Program-made: the position numbers and the translations under genes
Notes under the pieces: generated by a model
What the model was told of the DNA's origin: nothing
Seen by the model: the letters and a program-made list of their open reading frames with translations, nothing else
The model's database searches: none
Shown: piece by piece, positions 3,071 to 57,423 of the stretch
Layout of the letters: each line of letters begins with the position of its first letter
Position numbering within the stretch: position 1 is the first letter of the stretch
Virus record (IMG/VR): IMGVR_UViG_3300007640_000006
Coordinates: 1 to 62,883 of that record
Length of the DNA stretch: 62,883 nucleotides
Strand: one strand, 5' to 3'
Source: a virus

Positions 3071-5154
3071 CTTCCTTCAAGAAACCAGCTCCGCTGGAGT
3101 TCCACACCCAGTACGGCCTGGCCTTCGATGACATGGCCAACGAAATCAATGTCGATCTGTTCGCCGGAGGCGGCGGCGCCAGCACCGGTATCGAAATGGG
3201 TCTGGGCCGCCCGGTGCATATCGCGATCAACCACAACCCGGCTGCGATCAGCATGCACGAAGCCAATCACCCGGGCGCCCTGCACCTGCAGACGGACGTC
3301 TGGGACGTTGACCCGGTGGAAGTGCTCGCCGGGCGCCAGATCGGTTGGTTCCACGCCTCTCCGGATTGTACCCACCACAGCCAGGCCGCCGGCGGCCAGC
3401 CACGCAGCAAGGAAATTCGTGACCTGTCCTGGGTGGTAAACAAATGGGCGGGCATTGCAAAGCCCCGCATCATCAGCCTCGAGAACGTGAAACAGATCCG
3501 CCAATGGGGTCCGTTGATCGCCAAGCGCTGCAAAAAGACTGGCCGCGTGGTGACGCTCGAACAGGTGAAGTGCCCGACCAGCGGCAAGATGGTGAACCGC
3601 ATCGCCGATCCTGGCGAGCGCGTGCCGCGGCATAACCAGTTCCTTGTACCGGACCCCAAGCACAAGGGACGTACCTGGCGCCGCTTCCTGGCCAGCCTGC
3701 AGGCGCTTGGCTACGTGGTGGAGCACCAGATTCTGAAGGCCTGCGACTTCGGCGCGCCGACCAGCCGCGAGCGCCTGTTTCTGGTGGCCCGCCGCGACGG
3801 TCGGCCGATCGTATGGCCGGCGCCCACGCATGCCGCCAAACCTGGCAAGGGTCAGCTGCCCTACCGTACCGCTGCCGAGTGCATCGACTGGAGCGTACCG
3901 AGCAAGAGCATCTTCGGCCGCAAGAAAGAGCTAGCCGAAGCCACCAAGCGTCGAATTGCCAAGGGCATCCACCGCGAGGTACTGGGCAAGAAACATCCCT
4001 TTATCGTACCCGTGACCCACCAGGGCTCCGACCGACTGCACAGCCTCGACGATCCTTTCCGTACCATCACCGCAGCCAACCGTGGCGAGTTGGCGGTTTG
4101 TGCCCCACACCTGGTGAAATTTCGCTTTGACCACAGTGGCGAATCCCTCGACCAACCGCTGCCCACGATCACCTCTGGCGGTAACTGTGCACGCCCTGCT
4201 GGTGCTGCTCACGCGATGGGCGTCGCTGGGGCCTCCCTTATTCAGGTCGGCTACGGGGAGCGCCCAGGACAAGAACCCCGGGTGCCTGGTCTGGATAAGC
4301 CGGTCGGTACAGTGGTCGCCGGCGGCGTGAAGCACGCCCTGGCCAGTCCTGTACTGGTTGGCGTAGGAGGCCGCGCAGGTCAAACCGAGCCACGCGGCGG
4401 CAATGACCTGATGTACACCATCACCAGTAAGGGCGACACAGGAGTGGCCACCGCGTTCCTTGCACAGGCAAACGGCGGGTTCAACGTCACCCACTCAAAA
4501 CCCGCTCTTGATCCAATGACCACGATCACCAGCACCGGAACCCAGCAACAGCTTGTCACCGCCAATCTGGTACACCTGCGTGGCAATTGCGATTCGCGCG
4601 ATGTTCAGGATCCTCTGCACACCATCAGCGCTGGCGGCCAGCACCATGCAGCGGCTACGGCTTTCCTCTCCCGACAGTTCGGCCACAGCATCGGCCAAGG
4701 CCTGGAAGAGCCAGCGCCGACTATCACCGCTGGAGGTGGTGGTAAGTCTGCGCTGGTAGAGCTGCAGCTTTCCCCTGACGACGAGGCCGGCGCACTGCGC
4801 TGCGCGGCATTCCTGATGAAGTACCACGGCACCGGCGAAAACATCGTCGGCATGAGTGACACCGTGAGCACCATCACCACCAAGGATCGGCTGGCCCTGG
4901 TCACCGTCTGGATCGGTGGCGACCCATACGTGATCGTCGACATCCACCTGCGCATGCTGAAACCGCACGAACTGTATGCGGCTCAGGGATTTCCGCCGAA
5001 CTACATCATCACCCACGGCCACGATGGGCGTCCGTTCAACGTCAGCGAGCAGGTGCACATGTGCGGCAACAGCGTCAGCCCGCCGCCGATGGCAGCGATC
5101 GCCAGGGCGAACAACCCATGGGCTACTCCGTCGCCCCAAAAGGCTGCAGCATGA
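3067..5154 (+). CDS. DNA (cytosine-5)-methyltransferase with an unusually long, internally repetitive variable region
   Basis: Motif I DLFAGGGGAS, motif IV SPDCTHHS (catalytic Cys), motif VI SLENV, motif VIII TSRERLF, motif IX QGFPPNY, motif X GNSVSPP. ATG 3067 overlaps the upstream TGA (ATGA). Confidence 0.9.
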   Translation: MTSFKKPAPLEFHTQYGLAFDDMANEINVDLFAGGGGASTGIEMGLGRPVHIAINHNPAAISMHEANHPGALHLQTDVWDVDPVEVLAGRQIGWFHASPDCTHHSQAAGGQPRSKEIRDLSWVVNKWAGIAKPRIISLENVKQIRQWGPLIAKRCKKTGRVVTLEQVKCPTSGKMVNRIADPGERVPRHNQFLVPDPKHKGRTWRRFLASLQALGYVVEHQILKACDFGAPTSRERLFLVARRDGRPIVWPAPTHAAKPGKGQLPYRTAAECIDWSVPSKSIFGRKKELAEATKRRIAKGIHREVLGKKHPFIVPVTHQGSDRLHSLDDPFRTITAANRGELAVCAPHLVKFRFDHSGESLDQPLPTITSGGNCARPAGAAHAMGVAGASLIQVGYGERPGQEPRVPGLDKPVGTVVAGGVKHALASPVLVGVGGRAGQTEPRGGNDLMYTITSKGDTGVATAFLAQANGGFNVTHSKPALDPMTTITSTGTQQQLVTANLVHLRGNCDSRDVQDPLHTISAGGQHHAAATAFLSRQFGHSIGQGLEEPAPTITAGGGGKSALVELQLSPDDEAGALRCAAFLMKYHGTGENIVGMSDTVSTITTKDRLALVTVWIGGDPYVIVDIHLRMLKPHELYAAQGFPPNYIITHGHDGRPFNVSEQVHMCGNSVSPPPMAAIARANNPWATPSPQKAAA

Positions 5155-54456: not shown

Positions 54457-54651
54457 TTAATGCGAAGCCTCGGCAGCTAGGAACTCGGTAACGATCTGCG
54501 TCACCGCCTGTTCGGTTGTGATGCCCTTGCTGCGCGCGTAGTGCTCAAGCCGAGTGCGCTGGATAGCGGACATTTCGGCGAGGTAGCACGCGCTTTCTTC
54601 AGCAATCTGCTGTGGTTGCGGCTGCCCAAACTCTTGGCTGCTCATGCTCAC
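54457..54651 (-). CDS. Small protein (64 aa) with a CopG/RHH-like C-terminus (cII position)
   Basis: RTRLEHYARSKGITTEQAVTQIVTEFL resembles RHH helix pairs. The start is coupled to the cro-like stop. Confidence 0.5.
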   Translation of the reverse strand: MSMSSQEFGQPQPQQIAEESACYLAEMSAIQRTRLEHYARSKGITTEQAVTQIVTEFLAAEASH

Positions 54652-54851
54652 GCAACCTGAAAAATGTCTGGGCGTAGATCAAAGGCTGAGACGGCGCCGC
54701 CGCACGCATCGACAACCGCGCGAACCCTGTGAGCGGGAACGCCACGTGTTTTCCACTGGGTAATTGCCATGGGTGTCACGCCAACCTTTTCGGCCAGCGC
54801 CTTGGCTGACCCAACCGCCTCGATAGCGGTTTCAAGAGGTGTCTTTTTCAT
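54648..54851 (-). CDS. cro: Cro-like HTH regulator (YdaS/Cro family-like, 67 aa)
   Basis: ATG 54851. LETAIEAVGSAKALAEKVGVTPMAITQWKTRGVPAHRV is HTH. Divergent from cI. Confidence 0.7.
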   Translation of the reverse strand: MKKTPLETAIEAVGSAKALAEKVGVTPMAITQWKTRGVPAHRVRAVVDACGGAVSAFDLRPDIFQVA

Positions 54852-54935
54852 AAACGGATCGCCAGCTCTCTCATAAACACAAATCAACGATACGTTTATT
54901 TATGTATTTGCACAAGCGGCGTAAACTCTTTGTTT
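54852..54935. promoter_or_regulatory. Divergent cI/cro control region with TAAAC/GTTTA operator half-sites
   Basis: ATAAAC at 54850 and 54873, GTTTAT at 54894 and 54932. A 15-bp palindrome TAAACTCTTTGTTTA at 54922-54936 overlaps the cI ATG. The -10-like TAAACT lies 11 nt before the cI ATG, so the cI mRNA would be near-leaderless. Confidence 0.6.
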
Positions 54936-55661
54936 ATGGAAAAAGAACATTCAGGCATACGCCTACGCTCCCTACTCGAAGAGAGAGGGATCACGTTTGT
55001 AGACTTTGCGAGCTCCCTCGGCCTGCCCGCCCCGCAGAACATCCACAACTGGTGGACTCGCGGCGTGCCGAAAGGGAAGGTGCGACAGGTCTGCGCACTC
55101 TTAAACGTCAGCCAGGAATGGCTGGAGGATGGCGTGCTGCCAGTTGAAAGCAGCTCTCCAGTTCGCCAGATAACCGCAGAAGCGGTCATGAATGGCCCGA
55201 TAGAGGCCTGGGACGACGATACCCCACTGCCGGATGACGAAGTCCTAGTGCCGTTTCTCAAGGAAGTAGAACTTGCCGCAGGGAGCGGGTGCATGTCCGT
55301 TGAAGTCAACACGAAGAGAAGGCTGCGCTTTGGAAAGTACAGCCTGAAAAACCAAGGCGTCGATCCAGCAAATGCGCGCTGCGTCACCATCACCGGCAAC
55401 AGCATGGAGCCTGTGCTACGCAACGGAGCGACCGTCGGCGTGGACGTTGGCAATACCCGCATCATCGATGGCGACCTATACGCCATCAACCACGGCGGTC
55501 AACTACGCGTTAAACAGGCCTACCGGCTCCCCGGTGGCGGCCTGCGCCTTCGTAGTTTCAATCGTGACGAACACCCGGACGAGGAGTACTCCCTCGCCGA
55601 CATAGAGCGACATGAAATTACCGTGATCGGGCGCGTTTTCTGGGGGGCGATGTTCTTCTAG
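54936..55661 (+). CDS. cI: CI-like repressor, HTH plus S24 (LexA-type) autopeptidase domain
   Basis: N-terminal HTH LRSLLEERGITFVDFASSLGLPAPQNIHNWW. C-terminal GNSMEP (Ser) and LRVKQ (Lys). Confidence 0.9.
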   Translation: MEKEHSGIRLRSLLEERGITFVDFASSLGLPAPQNIHNWWTRGVPKGKVRQVCALLNVSQEWLEDGVLPVESSSPVRQITAEAVMNGPIEAWDDDTPLPDDEVLVPFLKEVELAAGSGCMSVEVNTKRRLRFGKYSLKNQGVDPANARCVTITGNSMEPVLRNGATVGVDVGNTRIIDGDLYAINHGGQLRVKQAYRLPGGGLRLRSFNRDEHPDEEYSLADIERHEITVIGRVFWGAMFF

Positions 55662-55706
55662 CAACCTAATGCACCATGGAAATTAGGCATATTCAGAGGT
55701 AGGCCA

Positions 55707-56081
55707 ATGGCAGGGAATAAGATGCTGGAAGAGCGTATGCGCCTGGTAACACCGCATACGTACAACGCGCTGACGCAATTGGTTATGGCCCTTGCCGGAG
55801 CAGCAAAAAATCTTGGCAAGAAAACATGGTTTGGCCGTGACAAAGGCGTAATTGCCTACGAAAAGCTAATTGATAAGCTCCGCCACACTGTAACCGCCAT
55901 GACACTAGATGGAGTGGTCAAGCCTGCGACACCTGCACCAGAACTGGTAGACAAGATCGTCGAAGGCTTGGAATTTTTCAGCCAGGCACACCCCAACTGG
56001 CAAGACGCCTACCAGTTCGCCAGCTACTTCTTCATAGAAGAACGTGACAACGCAATTGCCATCCTTGATCGCATGAGATAA
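55707..56081 (+). CDS. Hypothetical protein (124 aa) co-oriented behind cI (rex position), in an AT-richer island
   Basis: Track ORF with AGAGGTAGG upstream. No recognisable motif. Confidence 0.6.
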   Translation: MAGNKMLEERMRLVTPHTYNALTQLVMALAGAAKNLGKKTWFGRDKGVIAYEKLIDKLRHTVTAMTLDGVVKPATPAPELVDKIVEGLEFFSQAHPNWQDAYQFASYFFIEERDNAIAILDRMR

Positions 56082-56099
56082 GCGAGATCACCATAAGCC

Positions 56100-56219
56100 A
56101 TGAAATGGCTTCGGTTCTTCGATGCACTCGCCAGGGGCGACAAAGGGGCGATCAGGTGGCTGCTACTGTGGATCGCTATCGTGGTCACTCTTGCCCTGGT
56201 GCTGAACCTTGCGCGCTAG
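56100..56219 (+). CDS. Speculative 39-aa single-TM peptide
   Basis: Not in the track. Peptide is MKWLRFFDALARGDKGAIRWLLLWIAIVVTLALVLNLAR. The RBS is weak. It overlaps the 3' end of the convergent 63-aa ORF. Confidence 0.3.
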   Translation: MKWLRFFDALARGDKGAIRWLLLWIAIVVTLALVLNLAR

Positions 56220-56376
56220 CATCCAGATTGATCAGTTCACTTTCCCAAGAGAGGCAGCGGTCAATCGCCACAGCTAGCCGATCCTTTAGTGCGTTCAGAT
56301 CCTCTGTTTCATCAACCAGACGCTGCAGATTGCGCAGCGTGCCGAATACACGTTCTTTGGGGGTCATGTTATCCAT
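56185..56376 (-). CDS. Hypothetical helical protein (63 aa)
   Basis: ATG with AGGA 10 nt upstream. Peptide MDNMTPKERVFGTLRNLQRLVDETEDLNALKDRLAVAIDRCL looks like a genuine coiled coil. Its strand conflicts with the cI-operon reading. Confidence 0.4.
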   Translation of the reverse strand: MDNMTPKERVFGTLRNLQRLVDETEDLNALKDRLAVAIDRCLSWESELINLDASAQGSAPGQE

Positions 56377-56393
56377 GGTTGGTCGTCCTGATA

Positions 56394-56882
56394 TCAGAGT
56401 TTATGTCGCTGGCCTTTAGCCTCTGCCCTCAGTTGTTCCATCAATCGCAAGTGGCAGGCTTTTAGCCGCCGATCAAGGAGAAATGCATTGGCAAGACTCC
56501 AGAGCATAGTCAGCAAGGCTGTCATATCAGCCAACCGCATCATCGCCTTCCCAGTGTTACTTGTAATGAGGGCGTTTTCGGCGATCGGTATCACAAGCGC
56601 GATTACCAGGGCGGCTGCAACGGCTATCCGAAGGGATCGACTGATTCTAGCCTCAATCACTCTGGTTTCCCTTGAGCTGTGCTTTTTGTTCATTGTGATG
56701 ATCCTGACTTCGTTAGGCCTCAGCAGCGCCAAAACAGGGATGGATGTGATGATTATTGCCATGAGGATGGTTCTGATAGCCCTCGCGGCAGCTTCAATGA
56801 TTTTTTTCAGGTACACCAAGGTCGACCTGAAGCACCGAGAAAGCGCTGAGAAACGCAGCATCGCCAGATCTCGACGCAACAA
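56394..56882 (-). CDS. Alternative reading: multi-pass membrane protein (about 155-162 aa)
   Basis: Its stop lies 17 nt before the 63-aa ORF start (operon-like). No convincing RBS or promoter. Mutually exclusive with 56488-56886(+). Confidence 0.3.
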   Translation of the reverse strand: MLRRDLAMLRFSALSRCFRSTLVYLKKIIEAAARAIRTILMAIIITSIPVLALLRPNEVRIITMNKKHSSRETRVIEARISRSLRIAVAAALVIALVIPIAENALITSNTGKAMMRLADMTALLTMLWSLANAFLLDRRLKACHLRLMEQLRAEAKGQRHKL

Positions 56883-56886
56883 GTGA
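56488..56886 (+). CDS. Alternative reading: three-TM membrane protein (132 aa) with a basic C-terminus
   Basis: TTG start with an AAGGAG RBS 7 nt upstream. The ORF ends 15 nt before a plus-strand terminator. TMs are IIAFPVLLVMRAFSAIGITSAI, LILASITLVSLELCFLFIVMILTSLGL and MDVMIIAMRMVLIALAAASMIFF. Confidence 0.4.
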   Translation: MARLQSIVSKAVISANRIIAFPVLLVMRAFSAIGITSAITRAAATAIRRDRLILASITLVSLELCFLFIVMILTSLGLSSAKTGMDVMIIAMRMVLIALAAASMIFFRYTKVDLKHRESAEKRSIARSRRNK

Positions 56887-56901
56887 CACTCATTACCTAG
56901 A

Positions 56902-56930
56902 AGCCCGGCCCAGCGCCGGGCTTTTTCGTT
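56902..56930 (+). terminator. Rho-independent terminator ending the cI-side transcription unit
   Basis: AGCCCGGC-ccagc-GCCGGGCT 8-bp stem followed by TTTTCGTTT. Confidence 0.75.
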
Positions 56931-56966
56931 TCTACCGACCAGATCGGCCGGCCTTGATCATGTCAC

Positions 56967-56984
56967 AAATAAACAAAATAAACA
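56967..56984 (+). promoter_or_regulatory. Tandem AAATAAACA AAATAAACA operator-like repeats upstream of the early promoter
   Basis: Two abutting 9-mers. A third copy at 57001-57009 lies inside the promoter spacer. Confidence 0.5.
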
Positions 56985-56991
56985 TTTGGTG

Positions 56992-57020
56992 TTGACGCAC
57001 AAATAAACACGATGTTTAAT
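56992..57020 (+). promoter_or_regulatory. Sigma70-like early-left promoter (PL analogue) with an embedded operator
   Basis: TTGACG-17 nt-TTTAAT. The palindrome TAAACACGATGTTTA (57004-57018) overlaps the -10. The first gene starts at 57064 with a GGAGG RBS. Confidence 0.6.
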
Positions 57021-57063
57021 TGCCTCCAAGCAAAGCCGAAAGGCCACCACACGGAGGCAAGCC

Positions 57064-57423
57064 ATGTATCTGCATCCCAACCTGATCAACAGCGCCAACC
57101 CGCTGCCGTATCCGGGCCTTCCGGAGCGTGAAGAAACCCGCAAGCGTGCCCTTGCAGTTATGCAGCGCCAGGTGCTGAACGAGCTGCAACTTGGCGAACC
57201 GAAGCTGTGCCACGCCTTCGCCCAGTTCTGCGCTGATCGTTTCGATGAAGCCACCAGCTATGCGCTGTGTGTCTCCCGCATCGTTGGCGAGAAGGCAGAA
57301 CAGAAGCAGGCCGACAAGCTGGTCACCGAGCACGTCGAGAAGTGCCGCCCGCTGTTCGTGGACGAGGAAGTCGAGCGCCGCATCATCGGCGCGAAGTACG
57401 AAGCACTGGGGCTGCCGCAATGA
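57064..57423 (+). CDS. Hypothetical first early-left protein (119 aa)
   Basis: GGAGG RBS, first ORF after the promoter. Confidence 0.65.
   Translation: MYLHPNLINSANPLPYPGLPEREETRKRALAVMQRQVLNELQLGEPKLCHAFAQFCADRFDEATSYALCVSRIVGEKAEQKQADKLVTEHVEKCRPLFVDEEVERRIIGAKYEALGLPQ

Follow-up and report, generated by a model that had tools for sequence, protein, structure and literature searches.

What does a lambdoid prophage of Pseudomonas carry in the interval between its repressor gene and its early-left promoter, where phage lambda has rexA and rexB? This question is raised by IMG/VR record IMGVR_UViG_3300007640_000006, positions 1 to 62,883 (the window, that is, the whole stretch of DNA that was analysed), which is a lambdoid prophage of the Pseudomonas oleovorans/mendocina group (Ectopseudomonas). 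The initial annotation, made from the sequence alone, described an AT-richer island directly 3' of cI (55662-56930), listed several small open reading frames (ORFs) in it, including a membrane ORF assigned to neither strand, and proposed an exclusion module built on the logic of RexA/RexB. Comparison with related loci indicates that the interval from cI to the terminator before the left operators and promoter (OL/pL) is an accessory-gene slot of a Pseudomonas lambdoid prophage family, in which the cargo is swapped. Its most unusual feature, invisible to the initial annotation, is that the membrane ORF probably comprises two opposite-strand genes, denoted here D+ and D-. The proposal of repressor-linked accessory or exclusion cargo, with its rex-like reading, is partly supported, as detailed below.

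The membrane ORF probably consists of two antisense genes

The membrane ORF, originally entered as a single frame at 56394-56886, is real but does not hold as one ORF: it probably resolves into D+, which encodes a membrane protein of 132 amino acids (aa) on the plus strand (56488-56886) and is the last gene before the terminator, and D-, which encodes a predicted 99-aa two-helix membrane hairpin on the minus strand (56394-56693). The two genes overlap antisense over 206 nucleotides (nt; 56488-56693, both strands), and their frames share third codon positions, which makes the third-base codon-position test unusable for assigning the membrane ORF to a strand.

A longer minus-strand ORF of 162 aa (56394-56882) was rejected. 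The minus-strand homologues, 99-108 aa in length, align solely from Met64 of this ORF, and the frame upstream of Met64 carries stop codons in five related loci (L009, L013, L015, L016 and L017); D- is therefore placed at 56394-56693. Its ATG is preceded by AGGA or GGAGG, 8-12 nt upstream, in all eight loci compared. The D- protein has basic N- and C-termini, and AlphaFold2 (AF2) places helices at residues 4-42 and 47-98, at a low confidence (predicted local distance difference test score, pLDDT, 66.5) at which the model was not used for fold search.

On the plus strand, AGGAG lies 6-7 nt before an in-frame TTG, the start of D+, in six of the eight loci; in L015 and L016, this TTG is a CTG, with an ATG two codons downstream. 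The D+ frame is open to a few codons short of the terminator in all eight. The protein has a basic N-terminal part, hydrophobic segments at about residues 50-83 and 83-108, and a basic tail. Over the last ~62 codons, the DNA is not alignable between locus types, yet the protein keeps the hydrophobic helix and the pattern F-[KR]-x-x-[KR]-[VI]..R-x-H. In the part of D+ outside the overlap, the ratio of nonsynonymous to synonymous differences per site (pN/pS) is 0.31-0.82. The possibility that the plus strand encodes, in place of full-length D+, a shorter gene beginning close to the D- start is disfavoured: there is no conserved internal start, and constraint on the plus frame is found in all thirds of the overlap.

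Codon composition was scored with a discriminator for which 41 long ORFs from the window served as the training set; in leave-one-out tests, it told the real frame from the wobble-sharing antisense frame in 41 of 41 cases. The codon log-likelihood ratio (LLR) is +0.16 for the D- tail (56397-56486), against -0.39 for the opposite frame, and +0.06 for the D+ C-terminus, against -0.12. Each of the two genes thus has a coding signature outside the overlap, which was counted in favour of dual coding. Considered one at a time, D+ is very likely a real gene, and D- is likely to be one.

Constraint on both frames of the overlap

Judging by the pattern of substitutions, purifying selection acts on both frames of the overlap, and both are open in all ten related loci. 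Changes were sorted in the manner of OLGenie into those nonsynonymous in D+ only (NS), in D- only (SN), in both (NN) or in neither (SS), with transitions and transversions kept separate, and four single-coding genes from the same loci served as controls. For transversions in eight loci, NS/SS for D+ was 0.45 (0.25-0.71) and SN/SS for D- was 0.48 (0.32-0.70), compared to 0.43 for the real and 0.83 for the shadow frames of the controls; the respective values for transitions were 0.55 and 0.47, compared to 0.30 and 0.72. Summary estimates spanned 0.43-0.45 for NS/SS of D+, the ten-locus set included, and, without that set, 0.42-0.48 for SN/SS of D-; with all changes in ten loci, the ratios were 0.44 and 0.38. 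The mean BLOSUM62 score of the replacements was -0.25 in D+ and +0.03 in D-, where the controls gave -0.15 to +0.21 for real and -0.71 to -1.10 for shadow frames. A column-by-column test, restricted to wobble positions of codons whose first two bases do not vary, was abandoned because only seven columns qualified, which was too few.

These values were compared with simulations that started from D's own sequence, followed an approximate tree, were tuned to the observed SS and NN rates, and placed one frame under selection. The unselected frame had a ratio of ~0.91-0.93 ± 0.09 and a mean BLOSUM62 score of -0.68 to -0.79 ± 0.12, and stayed open in all leaves in 1-5% of the runs. None of the 300 runs of either single-frame model reached the observed values, and a two-frame model was compatible with them. 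Both constraints persist when the comparison is limited to the six loci that share an orientation, and every third of the overlap shows them.

The alternative that survives best is that translation is confined to either D+ or D-, with the remaining frame being a shadow ORF held open by the composition of its partner. Wobble-sharing antisense frames are frequently open in G+C-rich genes, and the overlapping part of D+ is nearly devoid of Tyr, His and Gln codons, the ones that create stops on the opposite strand. Inside the overlap, the codon LLR is near zero for both frames, between the values typical of real and of shadow frames, and the gene callers picked D- in most genomes. However, an unselected frame with the composition of D, as simulated, would seldom stay open and would have a ratio of about 0.9 and replacements of about -0.7 to -0.8, far from what is observed; furthermore, a Shine-Dalgarno (SD) sequence and start codon are conserved for each gene, each has its coding signature beyond the overlap, and both frames are retained where the module is inverted. 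We regard the shadow-ORF explanation as unlikely. Three further points tell against dual coding: gene finders called D+ only in near-identical copies; the C-terminus of D+ is replaced in Pseudomonas sp. C11, and D+ replacements are shadow-like in the last third of the overlap (BLOSUM62 -0.66); and the statistics come from only 8-10 related sequences whose synonymous sites are close to saturation, and depend on a home-made estimator and on simulations under a simple model. With these set against the evidence above, translation of both D+ and D- appears rather probable.

Mosaic cargo of the slot in related prophages

The content of the slot differs among related prophages. In the window, the order is A-B-[C, minus strand]-D, where D is the D+/D- module. 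Pseudomonas sp. C11 (L001) has cI-A-B-D followed by a 69-aa frame, L012 and L015 have cI-B-D, L009 has D only, and the sister prophage L013 has cI-T5orf172-[C, minus strand]-D. In L013, the position of A after cI is taken by a T5orf172/MUG113 protein (L013:8500-9033, minus strand in the locus) that matches the PADLOC candidate PDC-S57 (E = 3.5e-24) and, more weakly, PD-Lambda-1. PDC-S57 thus shares the post-cI slot, but it is absent from the window and unrelated in sequence to A. Because L013 carries this match in the place of A, the observation suggests that the interval from cI to pL is a defence hotspot.

A slot of 2.5 kb is found in L017, with two minus-strand genes, a TerB-domain gene and a small transmembrane (TM) gene. 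The D module comes next and points the other way with respect to the ERF-type early-left genes (L017:2109-3404); a hairpin without a T tract lies between the convergent genes. The D module is inverted in the same way in L019 (L019:107-609). The D+/D- cassette appears to move as a unit, in either orientation.

The initial annotation had paired the soluble protein with the polytopic membrane protein as a functional unit. This pairing does not hold: six lineages have D but not A (L009, L012, L013, L015, L017 and L019), and at least seven loci have A but not D (L003, L006-8 and L024-26), so that the two assort independently and are not an obligate pair. The association of B with D+ is more consistent than that of A with D; in five lineages, B immediately precedes D+ and is encoded on its strand. 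C is present in two lineages.

Genes A, B and C

Gene A (55707-56081, plus strand) encodes a 124-aa, predicted cytoplasmic, all-alpha protein of an uncharacterised family that recurs after cI-type repressors. It is a real gene, as originally listed, with 15 homologues at identities down to 48%, 233 clusters in an exhaustive profile search of public data, and a codon LLR of +0.30 compared to -0.44 for the antisense frame. The family has two invariant motifs, GKKTxFGRDKG and PNWQDAY. AlphaFold modelling, proposed earlier as a check, gave a low-confidence model for D- (see above) and a confident six-helix bundle for A (pLDDT 91.6), for which Foldseek against the PDB and BFVD detected no structural neighbour (best E ~0.5); the A profile had no match among PDB sequences either. 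A Pfam scan of long A-containing proteins showed occasional fusions of the A domain with Sel1, MORN or zinc-ribbon modules, and these partners were judged not indicative of its function. A is located directly 3' of cI-type repressors in L001/L002, L024 and L025, with one gene in between in L026, and occupies a post-repressor position in at least five phage lineages with differing repressors.

Several observations were made on the A family outside the immediate relatives of the window. In a distant lineage (L006:1191-1873 and L008:512-1194), a strongly hydrophobic 101-aa protein, with four TM segments apparent by eye, is followed after a 3-nt gap by A, and a divergent helix-turn-helix (HTH) regulator adjoins; this protein starts with MNWL like peptide B, which may be a coincidence. 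In L026 (1352-3560), a cro-like gene diverges from an HTH repressor gene, after which come a 94-aa lipoprotein-like gene, the A homologue and a 170-aa protein; the latter has a strongly hydrophobic region with two TM segments by eye, is SLATT-like by eye, and has no Pfam or PADLOC match. In a 1473-aa protein (P0040), the A profile matches 21 separate stretches (best at profile positions 13-51); the protein either is an assembly artefact or consists of tandem repeats of a portion of the A domain.

Gene B (56100-56219, plus strand) encodes a 39-aa, predicted single-pass membrane peptide (M-x-W-L/F-R-F-F-D-A followed by the TM segment, the hydrophobic stretch being residues 15-39). Originally listed as a possible peptide, it is supported as a real gene: its length is exactly 39 codons in five lineages (window, C11 (L001), L012, L015 and L022), with ATG, GTG or TTG as the start codon, pN/pS is 0.39-0.63, and the codon LLR is +0.21 compared to -0.23. 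Like D+ and D-, B has a clear hydrophobic segment with basic flanks. A 7-bp hairpin (AAGCCAUgaaAUGGCUU, 56095-56111) encloses the start codon of B; its fold energy is not significant (z = -1.66), and it may or may not limit the translation of B. In L015 (~3239-3245, cI strand), the stop codon of B runs into an in-frame ATG of the D+ frame (TGAATG), so that D+ of this locus may be translationally coupled to B, with an N-terminus longer by 13 aa.

Gene C (56185-56376, minus strand), predicted to encode a 63-aa acidic helical protein and previously described as a coiled-coil protein on the opposite strand, starts 17 nt downstream of the D- stop codon, and its 3' end overlaps that of B by 35 nt. 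C has a homologue in L013/L014. Differences between the window and L013 are distributed 6/0/16 over codon positions 1/2/3, pN/pS is 0.08, and the codon LLR is +0.40 compared to -0.48, all pointing to a genuine minus-strand gene.

The initial annotation recognised no motif in the island ORFs, and the searches agree: none of A, B, C, D+ and D- had a match in Pfam, PHROGs, NCBIfam, PADLOC, Rfam or PDB sequences, and the profile searches, which might have revealed mundane functions, assigned none. A Pfam-A scan at E <= 1 assigned no family to B, C or D+, nor to the 162-aa minus-strand ORF within which D- lies; A had only a chance match. PADLOC-DB 2.0, suggested earlier for the detection of known defence systems, likewise returned no match for the island ORFs apart from a chance hit of C to Csm3 (E = 0.056). 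Neither the island DNA nor, in tblastn, A, D+ or D- matched GenBank phages outside the terminator (for D+ and D-, 50,697 phage records were searched), and a search of IMG/VR with C gave no match. Several sub-threshold similarities were treated as compositional: SLATT_2 for D- (two of eight members, best E = 0.024, with the D- of the window at 12 bits against a cutoff of 40), DUF4231 (E = 0.3), DUF5337 and TrbK. The TrbK_Ti match (E = 0.14) is not significant, and no described superinfection exclusion (Sie) or Imm family was found with Pfam, PHROG, NCBIfam or PADLOC.

Genomic setting of the slot

Exact copies of the island proteins are present in assemblies of E. oleovorans, E. mendocina and Pseudomonas sp. 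The gene order is cro (leftward), cI, island, terminator, OL/pL and early-left genes, all but cro rightward, with the island between cI (54930-55661) and an intrinsic terminator. As described initially, the island is AT-richer than its surroundings: overall, it has ~51% G+C, with 0.49-0.53 in 300-nt windows over 55550-57049, compared to 0.56-0.60 across cI and 0.61-0.64 past 57050.

Divergent from cI is a gene for a 79-aa cro-type regulator (54648-54887, minus strand), with matches to Pfam YdaS_toxin (4.2e-17), P22_Cro (1.4e-5, below the Pfam gathering score) and PHROG 35. The cI repressor (plus strand) combines an HTH domain with an S24 peptidase (Peptidase_S24, 1.2e-20; PHROG 4, 2.1e-46). 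As listed, the cI ORF starts with a TTG at 54930, and that exact protein is absent from the public collection; the ATG at 54936 (MEKEHSG...), which an operator-like site (54922-54936) overlaps, may be the likelier start.

The strong plus-strand terminator just before pL, also reported initially, stands (56899-56931); it closes the transcription unit on the cI strand. Its stem (56899-56925) consists of 11 pairs followed by UUUUUCGUUUC, its fold has -20.2 kcal/mol (z = -4.98), and none of 200 shuffled sequences folded equally well; read from the minus strand, the hairpin lacks a U tract. Four related loci (L009, L012 and L013 among them) share it unchanged, although their cargo on the cI side differs. 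It also accounts for the only GenBank phage match of the region (56896-56942), to Pseudomonas phage Aurca01, with 93.6% identity over 47 nt.

Beyond the terminator lie the OL operators and the pL promoter of the early-left operon (56979-57020, plus strand), with the -35 box TTGACG at 56992-56997 and, after a 17-nt spacer, the -10 box TTTAAT at 57015-57020, both read from the sequence. The palindrome TAAACA-N3/5-TGTTTA has only three copies in the window, one adjoining the start of cI (54922-54936) and two overlapping pL (56979-56995 and 57004-57018); these are probably the cI operators at OR (the right operator region) and OL. The first gene of the early-left operon starts at 57064 (119 aa) and is followed by AlpA-like, ERF, YqaJ and other genes.

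A possible role in the lysogen and its rivals

With a probability of about 0.45, we propose that the genes of the slot provide the lysogen with exclusion of, or defence against, other phages. On the repressor strand, the slot would hold three genes, A (cytoplasmic), B (single-pass) and D+ (membrane). Because the terminator scan found no other terminator-like site on the plus strand between cI and 56899, these three are plausibly co-transcribed with cI and would be made in the lysogen from a transcript that reads through from the repressor-maintenance promoter (PRM) to the hairpin at 56899. C and D-, being on the opposite strand, lie outside the repressor transcript, so that the originally proposed rex position and co-transcription with cI apply to A, B and D+ but not to C and D-. 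The minus strand is presumably expressed as well, given that C is under strong purifying selection on that strand. D+ and D- would probably be expressed in different states, lysogeny and another, because full complementarity extends over 206 nt of their mRNAs. Protection of the lysogen against superinfection may come from the membrane proteins, and possibly from A, acting through abortive infection or through a block to phage entry at the inner membrane. Such a role is favoured, on circumstantial grounds, because A follows repressors, because the slot of L013 contains the PDC-S57 match, and because B, D+ and D- are small membrane proteins. By hydropathy and position, the latter three resemble small inner-membrane proteins of the immunity region, and small membrane proteins are the usual make-up of superinfection-exclusion factors (PMC11436027).

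Several considerations weigh against this proposal. None of the ORFs has a homologue of known function, and PADLOC finds none in the window. No promoter for D- and C was found in a consensus scan; the scan returned no site on either strand, missed even pL, and is uninformative in this respect. The sole basis for co-transcription with cI is the absence of a predicted terminator, and the argument from position is circumstantial because such slots carry non-defence cargo too.

The comparison with lambda cI-rexA-rexB is instructive. As in lambda, accessory genes (A, B and D+) follow cI on the same strand, a terminator precedes OL/pL, and the last gene encodes a small membrane protein. Unlike in lambda, the soluble and membrane genes assort independently, there are two extra opposite-strand genes, one of them antisense within the membrane gene, there is no similarity to Rex in sequence or fold, and abortive-infection activity is at most inferred. 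Of the RexA/RexB-like logic invoked initially, what is retained is thus where A, B and D+ lie and that they are likely expressed in the lysogen; the two-gene unit and any homology to Rex are not supported.

Membrane proteins by which prophages exclude other phages, such as P22 SieA/SieB, T4 Imm, HK97 gp15 and lactococcal Sie2009, are expressed in lysogens. They resemble the products of the slot in being small inner-membrane proteins encoded in or near the prophage immunity region, but the island genes have no homology to them in the Pfam scan.

The closest parallel to the D+/D- pair is found in Fc02, a Pseudomonas aeruginosa beetrevirus, in which olg1 is carried on the lysogen repressor transcript and overlaps gene 10, which lies on the opposite strand and is read after induction; superinfection exclusion is conferred by olg1 as well as by gene 10, whose product, Gp10, was recovered in the insoluble fraction (PMC9936078). 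Fc02 (olg1/olg2 and gene 10) and the window share the arrangement of opposite-strand overlapping ORFs by the repressor of a Pseudomonas temperate phage (PMC9936078); in the window, the two coding ORFs overlapping antisense are supported by evolutionary evidence and by their SD sequences and start codons. The differences are considerable: Fc02 is a transposable phage, its genes are upstream of the repressor and overlap the early ner operon, D+ and D- have no homology to olg1 or gene 10 in the tblastn searches, and expression and phenotype were established by experiment for Fc02, whereas the pair described here is known from sequence alone. Long antisense overlapping genes under purifying selection, with OLGenie-type evidence, have been reported also for the P. 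aeruginosa chromosome (PMC8850804). These are, similarly, antisense ORF pairs in a G+C-rich Pseudomonas genome, but there young ORFs lie within long conserved genes, whereas D+ and D- do not differ much in age, are small genes alike, and are conserved jointly in a mobile prophage cassette.

D+ and D-, if both are translated from the complementary mRNAs of a single mobile cassette, could form a strand-switch module, in which D+ (with B) would be made from the repressor transcript and act in the lysogen and D- (with C) in the other state, both being membrane proteins that exclude or abort phages; the module would then be a conserved, co-evolving antisense pair that is independent of, and non-homologous to, that of Fc02. 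We put forward both parts of this extension tentatively, as rather unlikely.

It is doubtful that the slot carries lysogenic-conversion cargo unrelated to phage defence, for example, genes affecting the host envelope or stress physiology. Moron slots often carry host-fitness genes, the slot of L017 contains a TerB-domain gene, and no defence model matches the island; however, the sister slot in L013 holds a defence candidate, and the known small inner-membrane proteins encoded next to prophage repressors are mostly exclusion factors (PMC9936078, PMC11436027).

A regulatory or addiction module, in which the convergent cI-A-B-D+ and D--C transcripts interfere or form an RNA duplex and so tune cI and the lysis-lysogeny decision, or silence a toxic membrane protein in the manner of type I toxin-antitoxin systems, is improbable. 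No minus-strand terminator is predicted between C and cI, so that transcripts of D- and C would run antisense into B, A and cI; the island proteins are small and hydrophobic; and a possible extended -10 element (TGACATGAT, minus strand, ~56956-56964), weak and seen by eye, lies beside the OL operators. However, the type I systems combine a toxin of less than 60 aa with a non-coding antisense RNA, and here the partners, of 99 and 132 aa, exceed typical type I toxins and are both selected at the amino acid level, unlike an antisense small RNA; there is no Rfam match, and in L017 the D module is inverted, away from the 3' end of cI.

Least probable is a RexA/RexB-like two-component abortive infection system, in which A would sense infection and gate a D+ channel (with B) so that the cell is depolarised: the position and strand are shared with rexAB, with a small membrane protein last before the terminator, and A adjoins membrane or envelope proteins in unrelated contexts (B and D+ in the window and C11; L006-8; L026), but these neighbours are mutually non-homologous, A is inherited independently of D, no fold in the PDB matches that of A, and no RexA or RexB match was found in Pfam at E <= 1.

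Implications for temperate phage biology

Prophage genes expressed beside the repressor are a rich source of anti-phage functions, and the slot described here contributes four unannotated protein families, namely, A, with a confident fold but no structural match, B, and the putative D+ and D-. The D+/D- pair appears to be a compact case of opposite-strand proteins encoded on the same 206 nt, found in about ten prophage lineages and in both orientations. To our knowledge, such antisense pairs are rarely documented in bacteria or phages. Gene callers keep one strand, and antisense pairs are therefore systematically missed. If true, the strand-switch interpretation would suggest that iso-functional sense and antisense coding beside repressors is a recurrent solution of temperate phages. 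If both D proteins are made and act in exclusion, as in the unrelated phage Fc02, this arrangement would hint at a general design principle of phage immunity regions.

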